From positions 1-49,764 of the forward strand of contig CALAJL010000120.1 of NCBI GenBank assembly GCA_937922735.1: 49,764 nt of DNA. The letters run 5' to 3'. The notes below the pieces were generated by a model, which saw nothing but the letters and a program-made list of their open reading frames with translations, did no database searches and had not been told where the DNA came from. The stretch comes from an uncultured Gammaproteobacteria bacterium. Lineage in GTDB: Bacteria > Pseudomonadota > Gammaproteobacteria > UBA4575. Below, in pieces: positions 13,647 through 49,764 of the stretch (position 1 is the stretch's first letter; each line of letters starts with the position of its first letter). The translations under genes and the position numbers were made by a program.

Positions 13647-15422
13647 TTATTCTCCGCTTGGCATTGCCGGCATTTCACTATAGGAAAATCTAGCAAAGGA
13701 AATGGTTTGCTCTAACATATGTTGAAAGACGATATTCTGTGTTTTCCTATCTGATTGCAGAACTAAATGATCACCATTTTCAGCAGCATTAGGTGGTGTG
13801 ATGATTGTTTTGTTGACTCCGCTTGATGTGCTTTCAGTCAATTGTAAAATATATTCTAACTCGATTGTTTTGTCTGAGTTTCGATGAGAGTCTATTACTT
13901 CCATGAGTTCAACTTTTCCGTGTAAAACTTCGACACCCATTTTTACGCCTTGTTCAGTTAAAGATTGCATCCAACGGATTACACCTAATCGCCATTCGTC
14001 ATTGGGTTTATCTTCTAATCTAATTAAGATGATGTCACCGACTTGAGATTGATAATCAGATGTATTATTTGAGTTCAAGCAGTACCCGCCTTTGCTGGCA
14101 TTGCTAATATCCCATGTTTGAATGCTTGGGCTAAGAGTGATAGTGCTGTCATTGTCAGAAGCGTTATTTTCTAATTGTTGTTCATGTTTTTCTGCAACAA
14201 CATTGCCACGACTTATCCAATCCCAGGCGTTGGAGCTAGATACAAGATAATTATTTTCTTCTTCGTTATGGTCGTCATTAAAAAAAGTTGAAACTCGAGA
14301 ATTATCAATGGGCATTAATTCTAAGTTTGATTGGTTATTTATAGCGCCTGTTTCTTTAATTGTTTCTTTGTGGTTAGGATGCAGAATATCTATAGCATTA
14401 CGCATACCCATTACAAGATGTAATCTTCCTTTTGCTGGAACTGCTCTTTTAGAAGAGCGAATTGGTTTGCTGGTTAATTTTTTAAATAATCGTCTGCTTA
14501 ATGATTTACTTAAAAGGTCTGCTGACAGTGCCAGCTCAGCAATGTCTTTTTGATCAGTATGAGAAATTTCTTTTAACTCATTGATCAACGGAGTAGCGTT
14601 GATGTAACGATTTTTTGAAGAGATAGGTATTTCATCATTAGGAAGCAGGCGGACGGGCTGATGTAATGACAGATTGATATAAAATGTATGTTCGCAATCT
14701 GCAGGAACAATGTCGGATAGTTCTGAAAGTTGGCTAACCTTTCCAAGATACGCAGCAATTTTTCCGGCTTCACCATGTCCATAGGTATGTAAATTCGACA
14801 ATGATAAAAGGCAAGCATGTGTAAATAAACTTTTAGGTGAAGATTTGAGATTGGTATTATCTATTTCATTTTTAGTCTGGAGATCAGTCAGCTCAAAATG
14901 CTCTGCAATACTATAGAGTTGGCAGAGGTCTTGCCAAAAGCTTTGCGGTGGTTCCGAATATACTTGGGCTAGTGTTATATACTGTTCTAACTGATAGTAC
15001 ATAGCATGATGTACACAGGTTATTAACTTTTTACTGCTGAGTCGGTTGTCTCGGTTCACCGTTTCTTGAATGATCACCTTGTATGCAACGGCTAGCTCAT
15101 TGAGAATATTTTGCTGTAGCTTTAGTGCTTCATTTGCTTTTTTTGACAAAGGGAATGGTTGTGAGAGCAAGTATTTTCTTTGATTTTTCAGAAAATCATG
15201 AGCAACTGGGCGCATCAATTCAATTGCTGCAAGCCTTTGTTTAGTAGGATGTGCCTGACGGTTTGAACGTTTTAATCCGTTGTAGAATTGTTGTACAGCA
15301 AGATCTAGGTCAACATAAGGTAAGTTCTTAAGCCACTTGCGTAATTCTCGCGGTATTAGTGAAAATTTATTCTCAGCCAATGGATCTTGGCTAGGCATTG
15401 AGATTTGGGTATCGAGAAGCAT
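13647..15422 (-). CDS. Uncharacterised 591-aa protein with atypical PilZ-like C-terminal domain
   Basis: Long clean ORF directly upstream of, and co-oriented with, the FimX-like gene. The C-terminus has an NxSxxG-like motif (NASKGGYCL) and beta-rich GDIILIRLEDKPNDEWRLGVIRWMQ...GVEVL. No canonical RxxxR lies upstream. Confidence 0.5.
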   Translation of the reverse strand: MLLDTQISMPSQDPLAENKFSLIPRELRKWLKNLPYVDLDLAVQQFYNGLKRSNRQAHPTKQRLAAIELMRPVAHDFLKNQRKYLLSQPFPLSKKANEALKLQQNILNELAVAYKVIIQETVNRDNRLSSKKLITCVHHAMYYQLEQYITLAQVYSEPPQSFWQDLCQLYSIAEHFELTDLQTKNEIDNTNLKSSPKSLFTHACLLSLSNLHTYGHGEAGKIAAYLGKVSQLSELSDIVPADCEHTFYINLSLHQPVRLLPNDEIPISSKNRYINATPLINELKEISHTDQKDIAELALSADLLSKSLSRRLFKKLTSKPIRSSKRAVPAKGRLHLVMGMRNAIDILHPNHKETIKETGAINNQSNLELMPIDNSRVSTFFNDDHNEEENNYLVSSSNAWDWISRGNVVAEKHEQQLENNASDNDSTITLSPSIQTWDISNASKGGYCLNSNNTSDYQSQVGDIILIRLEDKPNDEWRLGVIRWMQSLTEQGVKMGVEVLHGKVELMEVIDSHRNSDKTIELEYILQLTESTSSGVNKTIITPPNAAENGDHLVLQSDRKTQNIVFQHMLEQTISFARFSYSEMPAMPSGE

Positions 15423-40674: not shown

Positions 40675-41397
40675 TCAAGTAGAGATTATTTCTAACTTCA
40701 TTGAATCAGGTGTGCAGCGTAAAACACTCCCTTGTTCATACCAGTCTCCAAGCACAATTCTTTTGTATGTATGGCTACTTTGGATAAATTCATGTTCCGC
40801 AGGTCGGTGGGTATGGCCATGAATTAGATGTACCACATTATGTTTCTGCATAACTCGTTCAACAGTATATTGATTAACGTCCATGATATTTTCGGCCTTG
40901 TTTTGAGTAGCCGTTTTACTTTTTTTGCGCAATCCTTCTGCAATTTTTAATCGTTGTTTAACACTTAGCATTAGCAATGGTTTCTGAATCCATGGGCTGC
41001 GTGCTTTGGAGCGATATTTTTGATAAGCGATGTCATCGGTACATAATGTATCGCCATGCATGATAAGTGTAGGTGTGCCATATAGATCAATAACAGTTTC
41101 TTCAGGTAAGATTTTGCACTGAGTTTGTTTTGAAAATCGTTTGCCAATTAGAAAGTCACGATTACCATGAATAAAATAAACTGGCACGCCGCTATTGGTC
41201 AGATCTCGTATCGCTTGGATAGCGAGTTCTAATCCTTCTGCGGGATCATCGTCACCAATCCAGTATTCAAATAAATCACCTAATATATATAGCGCATCAG
41301 CAGAAGAGCACTCACCCAGAAAACGACAAAAGGCCGCAACAATGTGCGGCCTTTTTTGGTCGAGGTGTAAGTCGGAAACAAATAAAGTTTGAGACAT
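40675..41397 (-). CDS. lpxH: UDP-2,3-diacylglucosamine diphosphatase LpxH
   Basis: 240 aa. Calcineurin-like motifs LFVSDLHL, LGDLFEYWIGDD, GNRDF and HGHTHRP. A cyclophilin gene lies upstream as in E. coli (ppiB-lpxH). Confidence 0.9.
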   Translation of the reverse strand: MSQTLFVSDLHLDQKRPHIVAAFCRFLGECSSADALYILGDLFEYWIGDDDPAEGLELAIQAIRDLTNSGVPVYFIHGNRDFLIGKRFSKQTQCKILPEETVIDLYGTPTLIMHGDTLCTDDIAYQKYRSKARSPWIQKPLLMLSVKQRLKIAEGLRKKSKTATQNKAENIMDVNQYTVERVMQKHNVVHLIHGHTHRPAEHEFIQSSHTYKRIVLGDWYEQGSVLRCTPDSMKLEIIST

Positions 41398-42232: not shown

Positions 42233-42309
<77 letters not shown>

Positions 42310-42328
42310 ACAAATTCAAATACTTAGA

Positions 42329-42366
42329 GAGACTAAAATTTAGAAAACACGTTTTAGTCTCTTTTT
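42329..42366 (+). terminator. Rho-independent terminator after tRNA-Pro
   Basis: 10-bp stem gagactaaaa / ttttagtctc with a 13-nt loop, followed by TTTTT. Confidence 0.65.
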
Positions 42367-42442
42367 AGTCTCCTCTTTTTTAGCCTTTATTATTATTTTT
42401 AGTCGAAAGACTTGAAATAAAAACAACTGTCCCCATCTATTA

Positions 42443-42613
42443 ATGAATGTAAAGAACAATCACAGTGATTGGGCGATAACACTATTGAAAGAAACTGCCC
42501 AAACCTGCTGGCCTAAGTGTGATGGTGATTGCCCCAAGGGTCCTCGCACATTTCGTGAAAGGAATTGTAATGATTGCAATATACTTGATCGAAGTCAGTT
42601 GGTCGGACGATGA
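42443..42613 (+). CDS. Hypothetical 56-aa Cys-rich protein (not in the ORF track)
   Basis: Hand translation gives MNVKNNHSDWAITLLKETAQTCWPKCDGDCPKGPRTFRERNCNDCNILDRSQLVGR, then TGA. It has five Cys in CxxxCxxxC...CxxC spacing. It lies inside the phage remnant and is followed by a terminator. Coding status unproven. Confidence 0.35.
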   Translation: MNVKNNHSDWAITLLKETAQTCWPKCDGDCPKGPRTFRERNCNDCNILDRSQLVGR

Positions 42614-42702
42614 AGGTTATTTCGTTCAGGTCAGTTGTTGCGTAGCAACGATTGAAACTCTGGCTTGGATGTCTTTAACTTTTGTAGTTTGACCTTGAAA
42701 AA

Positions 42703-42728
42703 AACGTACCCCTTAATTGGGGTACGTT
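42703..42728. terminator. Bidirectional rho-independent terminator
   Basis: aacgtacccc-ttaatt-ggggtacgtt forms a perfect 10-bp stem. An A-run lies on the left and a T-rich run on the right. It sits between the convergent mini-ORF and the YopX gene. Confidence 0.75.
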
Positions 42729-42732
42729 AATT

Positions 42733-43038
42733 TTAATTAAGTAGTTCTGGGTTTTCGTAGATGTTGCCGATTACTTCAGATTTATTATGAAACCGAACAG
42801 AGGTGTACCGCGGTGGTTGGTATTCAACTACCAAAACATCCCTGTTGAACTTAATAATATCTCCTTCATAGATCTCTGCATCATTTCTATCCCTTAAGCC
42901 CGTGTACATTTGCAAAAGAATTTCTGGCTCATGGTCGTCTATACTTTCCGTGTAATGCCATCCTTCATTTTCCAGGTATACGTCAGGAACCCATTCTTTC
43001 TCACTTGGTCTCCAAGCTCTAAATTTTATTTCTCGCAT
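42733..43038 (-). CDS. YopX-domain phage protein
   Basis: 101 aa. MREIKFRAW..., YTGLRDRNDAEIYEGDII and VIGNIYENPELL are the hallmark YopX motifs. Confidence 0.85.
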   Translation of the reverse strand: MREIKFRAWRPSEKEWVPDVYLENEGWHYTESIDDHEPEILLQMYTGLRDRNDAEIYEGDIIKFNRDVLVVEYQPPRYTSVRFHNKSEVIGNIYENPELLN

Positions 43039-43242
43039 ATATCATTAAGCTATCACGAGACTAAAATCTGTCCAGTAATCACCTGTGGAAAAGTCTCATT
43101 TCTGGTCTCTTTTTGGTCTCCTAAGCAGATGCGCACTTTTTTGAAAAATAAATAGAATAGAAACAATCATCTAAGGTAGAATGACCTCCTGCTCTGGCAG
43201 CAGGTGCGCAAAATAAGTTGTTGTTTCTGTTAGGCGCGTGCC

Positions 43243-43289
43243 GCTTTGGGAGCAGGGGGTCCGAGGTTCGAATCCTCGTGTCCCGACCA
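43243..43289 (+). repeat. 47-bp direct repeat, copy 2 (partial pseudo-tRNA-Pro; attR-like)
   Basis: Identical to 42263-42309. The upstream ~15 nt (ttaggcgcgtgcc) still weakly resemble the tRNA D/anticodon region. No 5' acceptor arm is present, so it is not a functional tRNA. Confidence 0.9.
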
Positions 43290-43446
43290 TTTTGCATGTA
43301 GGTCTTCTCAAAAATACAACATCATAAGATGATCTCTATGATGCGGTGAGTACATCCAGCATAACCATAAATAATACCGTAGCCATTCCTAATAATTTTT
43401 TTCTGTAATAAAATTGCCTTACTTTAGGTTCTATTACTATAGAACG

Positions 43447-44754
43447 ATGTTTGCTAATAAATTACCCCCAGGTCCGACTGAAGCATTTAACCTAAATGCA
43501 AATGAAGAGTCATTCGCACTAATCCATAAATTGCTGTTGGAATACGGGGATATTGTCTCCTTGCCTAGTGTTGGAAATAAGCCAATACAAATTATTATTA
43601 ATCATCCCGATTACATAAAGAACGTATTTGTAACAGAACATCGAAATATGCAAAAGGGCACTGGCTTTGATCGTGTGAAGATATTACTCGGGAATGGGTT
43701 AATCGTTAGTGATGGAGAGTTCTGGCAACGTCAAAAGCGCATCATACAACCCATGTTTCATAAAAATGTATTACAAAAAACGCATAACATCATGTGCGAG
43801 TGTAATGTGCGCTTATTAGAAAAATGGAAGAGTAATGTCGATAGAGGAGAACCTATAAATGTTACTAAAGATACATGTTCTCTTGCACTTGAGATAATTT
43901 TACGTGCGTTATTTAGTGAAGATTATGAAAAAATTTCGAGCAAAGGAGAAAGCCCATTTTTTATTTTAATTGAGCATGTGGAGCGAGACTTAGATTTGGT
44001 GGTTAAATTCAATAGTTTAAGGAAATACGTTAAGCGCTTTATGCAAGACCGAGTAGAAAGTAATCGTTATCCTGATGATATATTGTCTATGTTGATGTTG
44101 ACTGAAGATAAAATAACTCAACAGAAAATGTCAGAAAAAGAAGTGCTAGATGAAGTGATGACTTTGATTGTCGCCGCACATGAAACGACTGCGGCTACCT
44201 TGCATTGGGTTTGGTATTTCTTATCTAAACATTCTAAAGCATTAGATAAAGTGCATGATGAAATAGATCACCTAAATGAGGATCTGCCTAGTTTTGAATC
44301 TGTGCAAAAACTAAGCTTTATACGGCAAATAATTGATGAGGCATTGCGTCTGTATCCGCCTGGCTGGTTATTAAGTCGTCAGGTGACTGAGCAAATTAAA
44401 TTGGGAGATTATATGCTAGAGGCAGGGTCAAATATTTTTATATCCCCCTATTTTGTTCATCGCCATCCAGCGTATTGGGAGCGAGCAGAGCAATTTGAAC
44501 CAGAACGTTTCAGTAATGAAAAGACTAAGAAAATAAATCGTTATAGTTACTTCCCATTTTCTATGGGACAAAGGCGGTGTCCGGGCGAATTATTTGCCAT
44601 AATTGAAATGCAAGTGCATATTGCATACATATGTAAACATCTAAAACCAAACGATATCAAGGATCAGCCAATCGCTTTAGAGCCACTGATTAATTTGCGT
44701 GCACAAGAAGACTTATATATGCAAGCGCAGCACCGGCATTCTGTTGCAAGCTAA
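43447..44754 (+). CDS. Cytochrome P450 monooxygenase
   Basis: Heme-Cys loop FSMGQRRCPGELFA, ExxR (IDEALRLYPP) and I-helix VAAHETTAATL. There is an N-terminal KLPPGP hinge. Start placed at the ATG at 43447 (MFANKLPPGP) rather than the TTG at 43414. Confidence 0.9.
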   Translation: MFANKLPPGPTEAFNLNANEESFALIHKLLLEYGDIVSLPSVGNKPIQIIINHPDYIKNVFVTEHRNMQKGTGFDRVKILLGNGLIVSDGEFWQRQKRIIQPMFHKNVLQKTHNIMCECNVRLLEKWKSNVDRGEPINVTKDTCSLALEIILRALFSEDYEKISSKGESPFFILIEHVERDLDLVVKFNSLRKYVKRFMQDRVESNRYPDDILSMLMLTEDKITQQKMSEKEVLDEVMTLIVAAHETTAATLHWVWYFLSKHSKALDKVHDEIDHLNEDLPSFESVQKLSFIRQIIDEALRLYPPGWLLSRQVTEQIKLGDYMLEAGSNIFISPYFVHRHPAYWERAEQFEPERFSNEKTKKINRYSYFPFSMGQRRCPGELFAIIEMQVHIAYICKHLKPNDIKDQPIALEPLINLRAQEDLYMQAQHRHSVAS

Positions 44755-44797
44755 ACTGATTCTGTTTAAACATTAAATTTACTTTCAAACAATATTT

Positions 44798-46786
44798 ATG
44801 CAATTTAAAACATTAATTGATGCATTCACGCATAACCGAAGTGAAGACCGCTTTGTAGGTTTCTTGAGCGGCCAAGATGAGGAAAAAATTACTACCTTCA
44901 ATGCTTTATATGATCGGGCTTTGGGTTTGTTGCATGTGTTGCAACAGAAAGGAATGCAACAAGGTGATTATCTCATATTGAATTTAAATGATAATGAGAA
45001 GATGGTGGATGTTTTTTGGGCCTGCCAACTGGGTGGTATTATACCCGTTCCTTTGGCAGTGGGGATAAGTGACCAGCATCGCCAAAAGATATTTAATGTT
45101 TATCAGCAATTAGTAACAACTCCTAAATCAAATAAGACTTCAAGTAGCGCCTATTTATATACAGATCGGAAAACGCTACTTAAGTTACAAAGTAGTGCAG
45201 AAAAAGCCTCTGATACTTCATCTTATGAATCTATAGCGAAGCATGTGTTATTAACAGATGAAGTAATTGATGTATCAAAGCCAGGTCAGAGGGTAGATGT
45301 GAAGCCTGAAGACATTTCATTTATTCAGTTTTCTTCAGGATCAACCGGTAGTCCTAAAGGTGTAGTGCTAAAACATCGCAATCTAATAGCTAATATTGAT
45401 GGCATCCAAAAAGCGGCTGAATTTACTGCAGATGATATAAGCTTGAGTTGGATGCCTTTGACACATGATATGGGGTTAATAGGGTTTCATTTAAATCCGA
45501 TTGTGTGTAATTACAATCATTACATTATGCGCACGGATCTTTTTATCCGTCGGCCGCTCTATTGGATGACCGCGGCTAGTGATAAGAAAGCAAATGTTCT
45601 ATGTTCCCCAAACTTTGGTTATAAACATTTTCTAAATGCCTTTGCTCGAAAAGGGTTGGAAGGTATCGATCTTTCGCATATGCGTTTAATTTTTAATGGA
45701 GCAGAACCCATTTCGGTGAATCTATGTGATCAGTTCACTCATGAAATGTCGAAGTTTGGTTTACCTAAGAACAGTATGTTTCCAGTGTATGGTTTAGCAG
45801 AAGCCAGTTTGGCGGTAAGTTTTCCAGTAGTTGGGTCCGATCTAAACGTTATTGATGTGCACCGAGAGTCTTTGGCTATTGGCGCTCAAGCAAAAATTAC
45901 ATCCAAGTCAGAAAAGACTTCAACCCTTGTGGGTGTTGGTGTGCCGATTCCACATTGCAAGGTAAGGATCAGTGATCAACAAGGTGAAGAATTGCCAACA
46001 GGCACGGTTGGGCATATTCATATTGGTGGCCAAAATGTAACGGAGGAGATAATTGGAGACAACGGGGCGATATTTTTTGCAAATGGTTGGGTAAACACAG
46101 GTGATTTAGGTTTTTCTTCTGATAATGGTATTTTTATTACAGGCCGATTCAAAGAAATACTTTTTGTCAATGGCCAAAACTATTATCCCCACGACATAGA
46201 AGAAGCATTGCAAACTATACCCGGGTTAGAGCTTGAATTAGAGCTCGGTAAAGCTGTGGTAACTGGAGTTTCTTCAGATAAAAGTGACCTTGAGCAAGTT
46301 ATTGTATTTGTTCTACATAAAGGCAAGTTGGATGAATTTATGGTTATTAGTTCGCAAGTTAAAGCAAGAATTAACGAGCAATTCGGTATTGAAGTGCATT
46401 ATGTATTGCCGATCAGAAAAGTGCCAAAGACTACGAGTGGTAAAGTACAGCGTTCTGCATTAGCTGATATGTATCTTAATGGTGAGTTTGAAGAGGTGTT
46501 AAGTGAATTGTCACCGATAAAAGAGTTGGCTAGCCAGATTGCTGACCTAGATAATGAGTCTGCAGATGATGAAATTATCAATGCGATTAAAAAAGTATGT
46601 ATGGATGCGTTACCTGACAAGACCTTTGGGGTTAATGATAGTTTGTTAGAACTAGGTGCAAGCTCACTATCATTAGTAGAAATTCATGCTGGCTTAGATG
46701 AGTTATATCCTGACAAAATAGAAATCACAGATTTAGTTGATCACCCAACAATTATCGCACTTGCAGAATTTCTAAAAACTAAATAA
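44798..46786 (+). CDS. Fatty-acyl-AMP ligase (FAAL) fused to a C-terminal acyl carrier domain
   Basis: 662 aa. FAAL-type adenylation motifs: FIQFSSGSTGSPKGVVLKHRNL, WMPLTHDMGLIGFHL, FNGAEPI, PVYGLAEASLAVS, TGDLGF, GRFKEILFVNGQNYYPHDIE and PKTTSGKVQR. The C-terminal ~80 aa carry a phosphopantetheine site (LLELGASSLSLVEI). Confidence 0.88.
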   Translation: MQFKTLIDAFTHNRSEDRFVGFLSGQDEEKITTFNALYDRALGLLHVLQQKGMQQGDYLILNLNDNEKMVDVFWACQLGGIIPVPLAVGISDQHRQKIFNVYQQLVTTPKSNKTSSSAYLYTDRKTLLKLQSSAEKASDTSSYESIAKHVLLTDEVIDVSKPGQRVDVKPEDISFIQFSSGSTGSPKGVVLKHRNLIANIDGIQKAAEFTADDISLSWMPLTHDMGLIGFHLNPIVCNYNHYIMRTDLFIRRPLYWMTAASDKKANVLCSPNFGYKHFLNAFARKGLEGIDLSHMRLIFNGAEPISVNLCDQFTHEMSKFGLPKNSMFPVYGLAEASLAVSFPVVGSDLNVIDVHRESLAIGAQAKITSKSEKTSTLVGVGVPIPHCKVRISDQQGEELPTGTVGHIHIGGQNVTEEIIGDNGAIFFANGWVNTGDLGFSSDNGIFITGRFKEILFVNGQNYYPHDIEEALQTIPGLELELELGKAVVTGVSSDKSDLEQVIVFVLHKGKLDEFMVISSQVKARINEQFGIEVHYVLPIRKVPKTTSGKVQRSALADMYLNGEFEEVLSELSPIKELASQIADLDNESADDEIINAIKKVCMDALPDKTFGVNDSLLELGASSLSLVEIHAGLDELYPDKIEITDLVDHPTIIALAEFLKTK

Positions 46787-46829
46787 TCGTTGCTTGATAA
46801 CTTTTTTCATATTTTAATGTTGTATTTAG

Positions 46830-47687
46830 TCAGTCGTATAAGGATTTTTTCTTTTTCCATCTCTTGTGTGTCCATAACCAATCCTCTGGTTGCTGTAAAA
46901 TTTGTTGTTCGACAGCTTGTACATATTGTTTTAAGACTATATTAGAATCTTTTTCATAAGGTGGAGAGCAGAGCATTTTTATACTTGCTTTGTATCGGCC
47001 GCGCGACATGCGTTCAAAATTCATAAAGAACACAGGGTACTTGAATAACGTTGCGATCTTTTCTAAGCCCAAATAAAAAGGGGTCTCCTGGTTTAAAAAA
47101 GTTGTCCAATAAGCTTCGTCTCGTCGTCTAGGGGCCTGGTCTGGGGCAATAGAGATAATGCGTGTTTGTTTTGCATGTTGAATGAGTTCTGTTATGCATG
47201 TTTTGGCAGGTGTTAGTGTGATATTGAATTTTTCACCTGAATCTAATGCTAATTCATTAGCCCACTTAATGTGTAACGGTTTATATATATTATTAAGTGG
47301 GAAGTTAAGTTTATGTTTCGCGGCTATGATAGCCCATTCCAGATTACTTTGATGAGCAAGGGTTAATAGAACTGTTTGGTTCTGTTGTAAATAGTTTTCA
47401 ATTTCTTCACTCGCTTCAAATTTGACGCATTCTAGAATTTCTTCTGGCTTCATGTTGAAGCTTTTAATAATTTCAACAAAAACTTCACTATAGTTCTTGT
47501 AATGTTTTTTAAGTAACGTCTTTTTTTCTATAGCACTTAGGTTTGGGAAAGAATTATCTATATTCTTTTTCGCAATACTGCGTTTAAAGCGAACAATGTA
47601 GAAAAGAAATAGATATAGCGGCCACGAAAAACCATATAAAACATGAAGTGGGAGGGCTGCTATGAATTTTATGATGAGCTTTTGCAA
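46830..47687 (-). CDS. LpxL/HtrB/MsbB-family (lipid A late) acyltransferase, paralog A
   Basis: 285 aa. N-terminal hydrophobic anchor, HYKN box, H(x)4E catalytic motif (LAHQSNLEWA) and C-terminal PEDWLWTHKRWK, typical of the lauroyl/myristoyl acyltransferase family. Confidence 0.8.
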   Translation of the reverse strand: MQKLIIKFIAALPLHVLYGFSWPLYLFLFYIVRFKRSIAKKNIDNSFPNLSAIEKKTLLKKHYKNYSEVFVEIIKSFNMKPEEILECVKFEASEEIENYLQQNQTVLLTLAHQSNLEWAIIAAKHKLNFPLNNIYKPLHIKWANELALDSGEKFNITLTPAKTCITELIQHAKQTRIISIAPDQAPRRRDEAYWTTFLNQETPFYLGLEKIATLFKYPVFFMNFERMSRGRYKASIKMLCSPPYEKDSNIVLKQYVQAVEQQILQQPEDWLWTHKRWKKKKSLYD

Positions 47688-47728
47688 AGATTTACTTTAG
47701 GTTTAAAGTGCGAGGGTAAGATTATAAT

Positions 47729-48586
47729 CTAGTCGCTAACAGGTTTTTTAAGTTTCCATCTTCTATAAGCCCATAGCCAGTCTTCTGGGCTGTCTAATAT
47801 TAATGCCTCAAGCTCGGCAATATATGCCTGCATTATTTGATTGGGTTCTTGTAGATAAGGTGGTTCAGCCAGTAATTTCAATGTTGCCTGATAGTACCCT
47901 TTACGGGTCCTTTTTAGTGACATGAAGATGATTGGATATTTAAATGCTCGAGTTATTTTTTCAGTGCCGGTGTGAAAAGCAGTATCGCGATTCAAAAACG
48001 TTTGCCAATAGGGATCATCATTCTTTTTAGGAGATTGATCGGCTGCCATCGCAAGCATGCGTGTAATCTTAGATCGTTTTAAAGATTCTGCTACACAAGT
48101 TTCCATGGGTAGGGGGGTAACATCAAATCTTGTGCGTAAATAATAAAATAATTTTTCTAGGGTTTCAGAGCGTTGAGTGCGGTAAACAGTATCCACTGGG
48201 TAATCTAAATGTTGTGCACATGCTAACAACGCCCACTCAAAATTACAAAAGTGTGCAGTAATAATAATGGCGGACTGATCTTGTTCTAAGTATTCTTCTA
48301 ATACATGTAGGTTGGTAAATTCGACGCGATTTTTGATTTCTTCTTTACTTAAACTAAGTGACTTAATACTTTCTGCGATTACCATGCATGTATTTTTGTA
48401 ATGCTTTTTAGCTAGGTTATTACACTCGTCATCAGTATAGTTTGGAAAAGATGCTTTAATATTTGCAAGCGCGAGTGTTTTCCTAACATTGAAGATATGA
48501 AATAAAAGAACATAACCACACCAAGAAGCTCCATGTAACACTCTTAAAGGTAATAGCGATAGAACTTTAAGAAAAGGTATTAACAT
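47729..48586 (-). CDS. LpxL/HtrB/MsbB-family (lipid A late) acyltransferase, paralog B
   Basis: 285 aa, collinear with paralog A (KKHYKN, TAHFCNFEWA = H(x)4E, FKYP, PEDWLWAYRRWK). It ends 41 nt upstream of paralog A on the same strand. Confidence 0.8.
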   Translation of the reverse strand: MLIPFLKVLSLLPLRVLHGASWCGYVLLFHIFNVRKTLALANIKASFPNYTDDECNNLAKKHYKNTCMVIAESIKSLSLSKEEIKNRVEFTNLHVLEEYLEQDQSAIIITAHFCNFEWALLACAQHLDYPVDTVYRTQRSETLEKLFYYLRTRFDVTPLPMETCVAESLKRSKITRMLAMAADQSPKKNDDPYWQTFLNRDTAFHTGTEKITRAFKYPIIFMSLKRTRKGYYQATLKLLAEPPYLQEPNQIMQAYIAELEALILDSPEDWLWAYRRWKLKKPVSD

Positions 48587-48872
48587 AATGAAGAGTATTT
48601 GAAATAAGGGAGGTCGCTATTGTTAAGCCTTGTAACTTTTGGTAGTTATTTATTGCCCATCTATAAGGTTGATGTTTCAAACTGCATGAAATTGCGCCAG
48701 AAATTCTTTGGATCTAGCGCTTTTATCAGGCACATTAAAGCAATCTTGACCAAAACTATCCAACTTGATTCTGCCATACTTGCATCTAGCTGATTGAGTC
48801 AAAATATATCTAGATCTTCATTCTAATAAGCATTCACTGCAACAGATAGCTAGTGATACACTAATGCTGTAT

Positions 48873-48949
48873 GCGCCCGTAGCTCAGCTGGATAGAGCAT
48901 CGGCCTTCTAAGCCGAGGGTCGCAGGTTCGAATCCTGCCGGGCGCACCA
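48873..48949 (+). tRNA. tRNA-Arg (anticodon UCU)
   Basis: 77 nt, folded by hand. Acceptor GCGCCCG/CGGGCGC. Anticodon stem TCGGC/GCCGA with loop CTTCTAA. T arm GCAGG-TTCGAAT-CCTGC. The CCA end is encoded. Confidence 0.93.
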
Positions 48950-49076
48950 TTACTTATACGCCCTCATGATACCCAGATATTACTGCTAAATTGTTGATCA
49001 TTAAGTGGTTTGTACTCTCTAATAAGTAACATAGTCAATTTATCCGGAAATACGTTAGTATGCGATTTCCAACTAT

Positions 49077-49153
49077 GGTGAGCGTAGCTCAGTTGGTAGA
49101 GCGCAGGATTGTGATTCCTGTGGTCGTGGGTTCGATCCCCATCGCTCACCCCA
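49077..49153 (+). tRNA. tRNA-His (anticodon GUG)
   Basis: 77 nt including the His-specific G-1 paired to C73. Anticodon stem CAGGA/TCCTG with loop TTGTGAT. T arm GTGGG-TTCGATC-CCCAT. The CCA end is encoded. Confidence 0.93.
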
Positions 49154-49385
49154 CTTGTTCTTGGTCATAGCAATATACATATAGACTTAATAATTTGTTT
49201 TTATATCGATGTAATTGCAATTAGTAATATTTGCAAATAAAAAAATGCAGTCTTACTATAGATTAACAGTATGAATACCAACGATTTCCTGAATCATTAG
49301 TAATGGCGACGATGACTAAATAACGCTCGTGCAAAATGTTTGGTGAATGACTAGTTTTAATATTAACTCTTGGAGCAACTTTTAA

Positions 49386-49764
49386 ATGAAAAACATTAAA
49401 TTAATTTGTCTGCTTGTGCTGATCGCAGTACTCGCAACGGGTTGTGCAACTCGTTCATGGGATAGTCGAGTAGCATGTGCTGCGGCAGGTGCTGTCGGTG
49501 GCACGATTATAGGCGGAGCTGCGGATAATACTGATGGAGCACTTGCGGGTGCTGCTATTGGTGGGATTTTAGGTTTCATAATTTGTCCTAATTCAGCTGA
49601 AGCGGCAGAACCCGCAATGGAAGCTCCTGGCGATGCTGATGGTGATGGTGTCACCGATGATAAAGATCGATGCCCAACGACTCCTGCAGGTGCAAAAGTG
49701 GATGCCAATGGCTGTGAGTTAGATAGCGATGGTGATGGTGTGGTGGATAGTAAAGATGCATGTC
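49386..49764 (+). CDS. Lipoprotein with glycine-zipper and thrombospondin type-3 (DxDxDG) repeats, probably an OmpA-family N-terminus; 3'-truncated by the window edge
   Basis: Hand translation gives MKNIKLICLLVLIAVLATGC (lipobox LATGC). It continues with AAAGAVGGTIIGGAAD...GAAIGGILGF, then DADGDGVTDDKDRCP and DSDGDGVVDSKDAC. It is absent from the ORF track because there is no stop codon within the window. Confidence 0.75.
   Translation, partial: MKNIKLICLLVLIAVLATGCATRSWDSRVACAAAGAVGGTIIGGAADNTDGALAGAAIGGILGFIICPNSAEAAEPAMEAPGDADGDGVTDDKDRCPTTPAGAKVDANGCELDSDGDGVVDSKDAC

Follow-up and report, generated by a model that had tools for sequence, protein, structure and literature searches.

A conserved gene module joining a fatty acyl-AMP ligase–carrier fusion to LpxL-family acyltransferases as a candidate route of envelope-lipid acylation in Proteobacteria

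How permeable a bacterium's outer membrane is, how well the cell resists cationic peptides, and how innate immunity recognizes it are governed by the late acyl chains of lipid A. To our knowledge, all well-studied late acyltransferases draw these chains from AcpP of the type II fatty acid synthase (FAS II), and the known exceptions are AlmEFG, whose cargo is glycine, and AcpXL/LpxXL. In the latter system, found in rhizobia, a special carrier donates an oxygenated very-long acyl chain to a dedicated LpxL-family transferase acting on lipid A; AcpXL receives its chain from dedicated elongation enzymes of the FAS type (FabF/FabZ paralogs), and the (omega-1)-hydroxyl of its chain is not made by a cytochrome P450. 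Here we describe a locus on a contig of 49,764 nucleotides (CALAJL010000120.1 of assembly GCA_937922735.1, hereafter the window) from an uncultured gammaproteobacterium of the lineage UBA4575, in which a cytochrome P450 (P450), a FAAL (fatty acyl-AMP ligase) fused to its own carrier domain, and two LpxL-family acyltransferases, LpxLa and LpxLb, are encoded side by side. We propose that this locus represents a variant of a conserved module for envelope-lipid acylation, and we give the mechanism set out below, taken as a whole, about an even chance of being correct.

In the AlmEFG system of Vibrio cholerae, AlmE is an adenylating enzyme, AlmF a carrier, and AlmG an LpxL-family transferase acting on lipid A (PMC4278540; also cited in PMC11631085). 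The initial annotation of the locus had likened it to this system, and the architecture bears the comparison out, in the window and across the loci surveyed here, in that a carrier-loading ligase, a phosphopantetheinyl carrier, and an LpxL-family transferase are encoded together. The two systems differ in their parts: AlmE is a DltA-type amino-acid ligase with glycine as its cargo, whereas the window ligase is of the FAAL type and its cargo is presumably a fatty acid; AlmF is a separate small protein, whereas the window carrier is fused to the FAAL; the Alm system has no P450, whereas the window has one along with two transferases; and the lipid A target, proven for Alm, is a prediction for the window module. 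The likeness to AcpXL/LpxXL lies in the proposed use of a special, non-AcpP carrier for an oxygenated chain together with a dedicated LpxL-family transferase. Unlike AcpXL, however, the window carrier would be loaded by a FAAL from free acid, and elongation genes of the AcpXL type (ketosynthase, dehydratase) are present neither in the window nor among the recurrent neighbors of the module. We regard the module as an extension of the logic of AlmEFG and AcpXL/LpxXL rather than as the founding of a new category. The genes in question, with the carrier domain, are as follows.

43447-44754, plus strand: cytochrome P450, 435 amino acids, putative accessory tailoring enzyme of the module (PF00067 and motifs)
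44798-46786, plus strand: FAAL-carrier fusion, 662 amino acids, putative core acyl-activating and tethering enzyme (AMP-binding and PP-binding)
46571-46774, plus strand: carrier (phosphopantetheine-binding) domain of the FAAL-carrier fusion, residues 592-659 (PF00550)
46830-47687, minus strand: LpxLa, LpxL-family acyltransferase, 285 amino acids, convergent partner of the FAAL-carrier gene (PF03279)
47729-48586, minus strand: LpxLb, LpxL-family acyltransferase, 285 amino acids, apparent duplicate of LpxLa (PF03279)

All four genes are intact and occupy the gap between an att repeat derived from tRNA-Pro and the genes for tRNA-Arg and tRNA-His, with LpxLa and LpxLb forming a minus-strand tandem that converges on the P450 and FAAL-carrier genes. 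Profile matches, intact reading frames, and motifs confirm the four genes and their coordinates as initially annotated, and in the profile searches that the initial annotation recommended the matches to PF00067, AMP-binding, PP-binding, and PF03279 all lie above the Pfam cut-offs. Its further claim that no polyketide synthase (PKS), nonribosomal peptide synthetase (NRPS), thioesterase, or reductase gene accompanies them holds across the whole 49.8-kb window, which likewise contains no gene for a ketosynthase (KS), condensation (C), thioesterase (TE), or reductase (R) domain.

The evidence that carries our proposal is the recurrence of these genes together in distant genomes. We searched with an alignment of the FAAL-carrier to obtain 80 loci, one genome per species (individual loci are cited as L001 and so on), and further look-ups starting from FAAL-carrier, LpxLa, and P450 homologs brought the total to ~95 loci. 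Of the 78 loci with enough flank, 65 have a P450 ortholog as the next gene upstream of the FAAL-carrier gene, in the same orientation, and the two genes overlap or are separated by at most 30 nt in 55 of 66 loci, the median gap from stop to start being 14 nt. A convergent LpxL-type gene is found no more than 1.2 kb downstream of the FAAL-carrier gene in 30 of 76 loci, and 36 of 55 loci have one somewhere in the 10 kb downstream. Clustering of all neighboring open reading frames (ORFs) identified the recurrent neighbors: in the 69 loci with at least 4 kb of upstream and 1.2 kb of downstream flank, we find a P450 gene in 54, a DUF374 gene also in 54, and an Sfp-type phosphopantetheinyl transferase (PPTase) gene in 30, and a GT9 heptosyltransferase gene is present in 10/69 loci. 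DUF374 is the LpxJ family, for which 3'-secondary acylation of lipid A has been shown experimentally in Helicobacter, Campylobacter, Wolinella, and Rickettsia (PMC6148475). Either an adjacent LpxL-type gene or an upstream DUF374 gene is present in 66 of 69 loci, and when only fully flanked loci are counted, an LpxL-type or DUF374/LpxJ-type gene is carried by 50 of 51. The reciprocal look-ups agree: all five loci reached from LpxLa homologs have a convergent FAAL-carrier gene (3' ends overlapping by 12 nt in four, separated by a 2-nt gap in L094), and all three reached from P450 homologs show a DUF374(-PPTase) unit divergent from the P450 and FAAL-carrier genes.

The flanks outside the module are wholly different from one lineage to the next, with GC contents of 35-72%. 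The conserved unit is the module rather than the surrounding neighborhood, because the linkage of P450, FAAL-carrier, and acyltransferase genes recurs while the flanks change from lineage to lineage. A neighborhood survey had been recommended in the initial annotation, which held that adjacency not conserved in relatives, together with the lack of any other lpxL/lpxM homolog in the genome, would speak against its hypothesis; we find instead that the association of P450, FAAL-carrier, and late acyltransferase recurs over the ~95 loci and that adjacency is conserved across distant genomes. The same observations bear on the alternative that the LpxL pair is housekeeping and uses acyl-AcpP, with the P450 and FAAL-carrier forming an unrelated pathway (for a hydroxy-fatty-acid metabolite or signal) that is adjacent by synteny. 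Within the window's clade the arrangement does lie in conserved core synteny, for which shared ancestry alone could suffice, and the P450 comes and goes while the other genes are unaffected. However, adjacency of the FAAL-carrier and acyltransferase genes persists in lineages whose proteins are less than 50% identical, amid unrelated flanks and often with overlapping 3' ends; an LpxJ-type gene takes the place of a missing LpxL-type gene; every LpxLa-ascertained locus has a FAAL-carrier gene; and, with no other consumer of its load among the genes sampled within 10 kb, the carrier domain calls for a transferase. We consider the housekeeping alternative quite improbable, and find it very probable from gene linkage that the FAAL-carrier is coupled to the acyltransferases.

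The FAAL-carrier family is kept at 44-83% identity in more than 90 loci. The window protein matches the AMP-binding model (3.7e-48) and PP-binding PF00550 (1.1e-07; 32.4 bits against a cut-off of 20.8) and contains the core motifs of adenylate-forming enzymes (SSGSTGSPKG, YGLAEA, TGDLG, and PKTTSGK); in the GASSL motif of its carrier domain, S622, S623, and L624 are invariant in 11 homologs. Its top NCBIfam model is "fatty acyl-AMP ligase" (PRK09192, 2.5e-100), with a score of 336 that lies below the cut-off of 600. FAALs have a characteristic insertion after the YGLAE motif that blocks ligation to coenzyme A; the window protein aligns end to end with the Escherichia coli FAAL 3PBK (1.1e-65), and the alignment is free of gaps over residues ~340-385, after YGLAE, where McyG needs gaps and where the insertion would approximately lie. 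Among solved structures, its nearest relatives are loading didomains from PKS/NRPS systems, namely the McyG adenylation–peptidyl carrier didomain 4R0M, to which the whole window protein aligns, carrier included (8.8e-77), and 6ULW. These structural relatives, and the fact that NCBI pipelines call homologs "non-ribosomal peptide synthetase", would suit a stand-alone loader that serves a secondary-metabolite line (PKS, NRPS, or other) whose genes lie elsewhere and whose product the P450 would tailor. Against such a loader stand the lack of KS, C, TE, and R domain genes in the window, the small host genomes (contigs of 1.1-2.9 Mb), and the observation that lipid acyltransferases are the only constant neighbors. 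Moreover, the large ORFs sampled within 10 kb of the module in other loci encode TonB receptors, an autotransporter, a methyltransferase-domain protein, a helicase/nuclease-domain protein, and isoleucyl-tRNA synthetase, and none among them is a PKS or NRPS (two have no Pfam match, and six other large-ORF clusters lay outside the scan). A loader acting in trans thus seems to us very hard to credit.

LpxLa and LpxLb match PF03279 (Lip_A_acyltrans) at 3.8e-33 and 1.9e-35, respectively (115.4 and 122.9 bits against a cut-off of 22.3). The two proteins are 40% identical and share the same HX4E dyad, in which H112 is invariant and E117 at least 90% conserved among 12 sequences; LpxLb aligns with Acinetobacter baumannii LpxM 5KN7 over residues 23-280, and LpxLa has weak sequence similarity to A. 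baumannii LpxM 5KNK. Judged by their profile scores, they form a distinct subfamily within PF03279. In a neighbor-joining tree (no bootstrap), LpxLa and LpxLb form sister clades within the FAAL-associated LpxL family, a topology that indicates a lineage-specific duplication. Most distant forms of the module have a DUF374 gene placed divergently beside the P450 and FAAL-carrier genes, and LpxLb plausibly fills the slot taken there by this LpxJ-type enzyme; characterized LpxJ proteins, by comparison, are housekeeping and unlinked to FAAL, P450, or PPTase genes, and the window has no DUF374 gene. A word-indexed protein search with LpxLa retrieved 116 proteins and missed most LpxLb orthologs, and a third paralog on the large contigs of relatives would be undetectable by it. 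A gene for a UPF0014 (PF03649) membrane protein stands between the two LpxL genes in L001 (12892-13611) and adjoins the single LpxL gene in L086 (7128-7847).

The P450 matches PF00067 at 1.3e-73 (Pfam profile search; 248.9 bits against a cut-off of 22.8). Its reading frame starts at an ATG at 43447, with an in-frame TTG upstream at 43414, and its translation carries each of the family's motifs: FSMGQRRCPG for the cysteine heme-ligand motif FxxGxRxCxG, AAHETT for the I-helix motif (A/G)Gx(D/E)T(T/S), EALR for EXXR, and FEPERF for PERF. The initial annotation took AAHETT as a sign of a fatty-acid hydroxylase, but the motif is not specific. The nearest solved P450s are CYP97 carotenoid hydroxylases (4e-53), followed by CYP170A1 (3e-41), CYP102-type enzymes (5.5e-40), and then CYP3A4; its closest characterized relatives do not belong to the fatty-acid hydroxylase subfamilies CYP102, CYP4, CYP152, or CYP153, and it scores 51.9 against a cut-off of 600 for the CYP152 model. 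Its substrate class is not readable from the sequence.

Nor is the P450 a constant part of the system, as the initial annotation had implied. In the window's clade, in which DUF374 and PPTase genes are absent from the locus and two LpxL-type genes are present instead, the P450 is found in the window, L001, L002, and L007; it is missing without remnant from L004, the closest genome (FAAL-carrier 81% identical), and from L005, L006, L008, L009, L084, L086, L088, L093, and L094; all five LpxLa-ascertained loci lack it. In L006 and L009 the tRNA-Pro gene lies only ~180 nt from the start of the FAAL-carrier gene. The P450 is thus a minority state in this clade, and for this reason we take the core of the module to be FAAL-carrier plus LpxL and the P450 to be an optional tailoring add-on. 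The part of the initial proposal in which a FAAL-carrier feeds LpxL enzymes, with a P450 in the same system, is supported by the conserved neighborhood, whereas its constant P450 is not. Since adjacency of P450 and FAAL genes is the majority state in distant orders, loss of the P450 within parts of the window's clade is more likely than gain. In agreement with its minority state, 17 P450 clusters (at least 53% identity) stand against ~75 FAAL-carrier clusters (at least 56%). Apparent natural P450-FAAL fusions, seen as ORFs of 1,000-1,100 amino acids, are out-of-frame read-through in high-GC DNA, and none is a true fusion. A mirror-tree correlation of P450 and FAAL identities (Pearson 0.95, produced by two point clusters; Spearman -0.17) was uninformative and was not used.

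The distant lineages, which include Steroidobacteraceae, Granulosicoccus, Halioglobus, and others, have as recurrent members DUF374 and Sfp-type PPTase genes divergent from the P450 gene, and sometimes a GT9 heptosyltransferase gene as well. In five loci (L037, L042, L050, L072, and L077) the P450 is missing and a gene for a flavoenzyme of the Trp_halogenase/FAD_binding_3 family adjoins the FAAL-carrier gene, with DUF374 kept upstream. This substitution looks like a swap of tailoring enzyme that fits chemistry on a tethered chain, and it hints at halogenated or flavin-hydroxylated acyl chains. In loci of the Steroidobacteraceae type (L003 12041-18077, L022, L033, and L045), a gene for a Fur-family regulator directly follows the FAAL-carrier gene, and an LpxL-type gene comes last in an arrangement of membrane fusion protein (MFP), resistance-nodulation-division (RND) pump, and LpxL genes 2-8 kb downstream; in L044 and L047 the MFP/RND-pump/LpxL block is inverted and abuts the FAAL-carrier gene. 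Co-orientation of a lipid acyltransferase with an RND exporter is unusual. Locus L089, on a 116-kb contig of an assembly labeled Kaarinaea lacus (GCA_975961635.1) and named for a Nostocales cyanobacterium, has a full module of DUF374, PPTase, P450, and FAAL-carrier genes; its neighbors, which include cytochrome c7 and DctP genes, suggest that the contig may derive not from the cyanobacterium but from a proteobacterium associated with it.

The locus had initially been described as lying in a tRNA hot spot, a framing that the following features show to be misleading.

40675-41397: lpxH (TIGR01854, 318 bits against a cut-off of 190)
42233-42309, plus strand: tRNA-Pro(TGG), upstream boundary and integration site, context outside the module (ARAGORN)
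42310-43289: degraded phage remnant of 980 bp, with a YopX fragment and a terminal 47-nt att repeat, separate from the four genes
48873-48949, plus strand: tRNA-Arg(TCT), downstream boundary, conserved in relatives
49078-49153, plus strand: tRNA-His(GTG), downstream boundary, conserved in relatives

If the four genes were the recently acquired cargo of a mobile island at this site, one would point to the tRNA genes on both sides, to the att-type repeat and phage gene fragment just upstream, and to one related cassette found on an IncP plasmid next to a Tn3 transposase gene. However, the two copies of the direct repeat (42263-42309 and 43243-43289; 47 nt, 100% identical, a copy of the tRNA-Pro 3' end) enclose only 42310-43242, a segment that holds the YopX fragment (PF09643, 42733-43038, minus strand, 5e-17) and leaves the P450, FAAL-carrier, LpxLa, and LpxLb genes all outside. 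No integrase gene occurs in the phage remnant or near the four genes (an xerD-like gene lies at 764-1702), and the GC content of the four genes (0.32-0.42 in 500-nt windows) shows no clear departure from that of the flanks (0.33-0.46). The tRNA-Pro gene has the same position in the relatives L001, L002, L006, L007, and L009. The relatives share the gene order purF, YkuD, DUF455, lpxH, ppiA, tRNA-Pro, [P450], FAAL-carrier, LpxL, LpxL, and then tRNA-Arg, tRNA-His, CHAP, Rce1, tig, clpP, and clpX, so that the order from ppiA to clpX is kept with FAAL-carrier proteins that are 60-81% identical; these relatives are metagenome-assembled genomes labeled Thiotrichales or Gammaproteobacteria, with contigs of 1.1-2.9 Mb. 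We therefore reject a tRNA-borne island, to which we assign only a minimal probability: the locus is core chromosomal DNA beside a tRNA gene also used as a phage attachment site. The lpxH gene noted in the initial annotation as close to the locus is indeed present, and its proximity is ordinary synteny. Different small inserts are found at the same tRNA-Pro gene in the relatives.

For the core module with its optional P450, we posit the following mechanism. The FAAL domain, judging by its family, would activate a free carboxylic acid (most likely a fatty acid) by adenylation and then load it as a thioester on the phosphopantetheine arm of the carrier domain at the fusion's own C terminus, creating a private acyl-S-carrier pool separate from AcpP and FAS II. 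Where present, the P450 would oxidize the chain, most likely by hydroxylation, while it is on the carrier, as the free acid, or in the lipid product; that it acts on the same acyl chain we regard as probable, if less so than the coupling of the FAAL-carrier to the transferases. Finally, the inner-membrane-anchored LpxLa and LpxLb, in view of strict gene linkage and family membership, would draw on the acyl-carrier as their donor and O-acylate lipid A, or its Kdo-bearing precursor, with this chain in a late (secondary) step.

Separate steps of this scheme have counterparts elsewhere. In cyanobacterial FAAL/acyl carrier protein (ACP) clusters the halogenase acts on the carrier, and JamABC is an example of a FAAL and an ACP combined with on-carrier functionalization of a C-H bond. 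The products of cyanobacterial clusters with FAAL, ACP, and CylC-type halogenase genes are expected to carry halogenated fatty acids (PMC8406957). Our module would resemble these clusters in placing a FAAL-activated free fatty acid on a carrier beside an oxidative enzyme (the P450, or a flavin halogenase in five loci), but the cyanobacterial carriers pass the chain to a PKS, whereas the conserved downstream enzymes here are lipid acyltransferases only. The P450 BioI (CYP107H1), which oxidizes acyl-ACP and cleaves the chain for biotin synthesis, is a precedent for oxidation of a carrier-tethered fatty acyl chain by a P450; it belongs to a different P450 family, the window enzyme being closest to CYP97, CYP170, and CYP102-type sequences, and neither its product nor that of the cyanobacterial FAAL/ACP/halogenase clusters is passed to a lipid A-type transferase. 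Coupling of an adenylating domain, a carrier, and an acyltransferase is likewise known from E. coli Aas (acyl-ACP synthetase/2-acyl-GPE acyltransferase) and Myxococcus ElbD, which like the proposed module put free fatty acids into membrane lipids; unlike it, they have acyltransferases of the PlsC/AGPAT type rather than of PF03279 or PF04028, lack a P450, and use glycerolipid acceptors.

We slightly favor lipid A as the acceptor, because both recurrent acyltransferase families are families of lipid A late acyltransferases, because a heptosyltransferase gene occasionally belongs to the module, and because every host of the module is a Proteobacterium. The main rival keeps the donor logic and assumes that another envelope lipid is the acceptor, with lysophospholipids, aminolipids, sphingolipid-like lipids, and glycolipids as candidates. 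PatA, a member of the same Pfam family PF03279, acylates phosphatidylinositol mannosides, and relatives of the window transferases are labeled by NCBI only as "lysophospholipid acyltransferase family protein". A cassette of PPTase, P450, and FAAL-carrier genes (L092; NZ_CP065408.1, 39938-59881) on plasmid pDCB2 of the cultured strain Diaphorobacter sp. JS3051, a conjugative IncP plasmid on which it lies beside the Tn3 transposase gene, also speaks for this rival. Its P450 and FAAL-carrier are 41% and 43% identical to the window proteins, and the surrounding cluster encodes two LptF/LptG paralogs, a CDP-alcohol phosphatidyltransferase, cytidylyltransferases, an ELM1/GtrOC1 glycosyltransferase, a second FAAL with a free ACP, an Spt-like alpha-oxoamine synthase, and an epimerase-type short-chain dehydrogenase/reductase. 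Three hypothetical proteins of the cluster have no Pfam match, and two of them compared with the LpxL profile by hhalign gave a probability below 1%. The cluster looks like a pathway for a sphingolipid-type or lipopolysaccharide (LPS)-like glycolipid with its own Lpt permeases, and the cassette looks like a portable "oxidized acyl donor" that different lipid pathways can adopt. Such a sphingolipid-type context is found in just 1 of ~92 loci, however, whereas two acyltransferase families recur whose characterized Gram-negative members are lipid A late acyltransferases, and a GT9 heptosyltransferase is a neighbor in 10 loci. On balance we find an acceptor other than lipid A unlikely, though it is the most probable of the alternatives considered here.

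Several further points weigh against our proposal as a whole. Both transferases fall below every NCBIfam equivalog cut-off for LpxL, LpxM, or LpxP: their best equivalog matches, to PRK08419, score 97.7 and 107.4 bits against a cut-off of 248, and both score 86-90 against 297.8 for TIGR02207 and 46-50 against 336 for TIGR02208. Because these scores are so far below the cut-offs, the acceptor of both enzymes may differ from that of canonical LpxL, and LpxL-family enzymes can use other acceptors, as PatA does, or move non-fatty groups, as AlmG does. The substrate of the FAAL-carrier may be something other than a fatty acid, given that McyG, its best solved relative, loads phenylpropanoids. Genes for a redox partner and a PPTase are absent from the window, the pDCB2 cluster contains no LpxL or DUF374 gene, and our survey of lpxL paralogs in the host is confined to the window, which is the entire 49.8-kb contig. 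Finally, the support consists of sequence and gene linkage, from which the chemistry, the acceptor, and the order of steps are deduced.

The remaining genes of the window are housekeeping genes: xerD, dsbC, parE/parC, efp/epmA/epmB, psd, aroC, leuCDB, asd, fimV, truA, trpFBA, accD, folC, cvpA, purF, lpxH, and ppiA. Consensus scans of 43000-49200 gave no signal for promoters (15 promoter-like sites against 20.4 expected) or terminators (4 terminator-like sites against 4.0 expected). An imperfect inverted repeat of 21 nt (86% complementary; 43312-43332 and 46807-46827) exactly flanks the P450 and FAAL-carrier pair; it is probably due to chance, as 44 inverted-repeat pairs, this one included, occur in the AT-rich 7.7 kb and relatives without the P450 still carry the FAAL-carrier gene. 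Between a GGDEF-EAL gene and epmB lies an ORF of 591 amino acids (13647-15422, minus strand) with no Pfam or NCBIfam match at E<=1e-5. At the end of the contig, 49386-49764 (plus strand) encodes a lipoprotein start, a glycine-zipper segment, and DGDGV (thrombospondin type 3-like) repeats before it is truncated; the gene at the equivalent position in relatives encodes a Gly-zipper/TSP_3/OmpA protein, and a minus-strand ORF of 108 amino acids (49382-49708) is the antisense shadow of this lipoprotein gene.

We found no published description of a module of FAAL-carrier, P450, and LpxL or DUF374 in the searchable literature, outside of which most papers in subscription journals lie, and within that scope the initial claim that the system is undescribed stands. 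Comparison across genomes corrects the picture of the locus, which is core chromosomal DNA rather than an island and in which the P450 is optional, and the module appears to be widespread, pointing to an unrecognized route of building outer-membrane lipid. If the proposed mechanism is true, free or exogenous fatty acids could be routed directly into lipid A, oxidized and possibly halogenated secondary chains could arise by an unsuspected route, and the "orphan" LpxL and DUF374 paralogs of many genomes might have private donors. A bolder version, which we consider improbable, holds that in many environmental Gammaproteobacteria a portion of the lipid A, or of an LPS-like glycolipid, is made from an AcpP-independent private acyl-carrier pool, for which a FAAL-carrier takes up free fatty acids; the chain would be functionalized at a C-H bond, perhaps when still tethered, by the P450 in the window and by a flavin halogenase-family enzyme in a sister variant, and then transferred by two dedicated late acyltransferases, one of which perhaps esterifies the hydroxyl made by the P450 to give a branched "tertiary" chain. 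Were this the case, it would add a new class to the chemistry of lipid A and make the P450 the first one known in the biosynthesis of that lipid.

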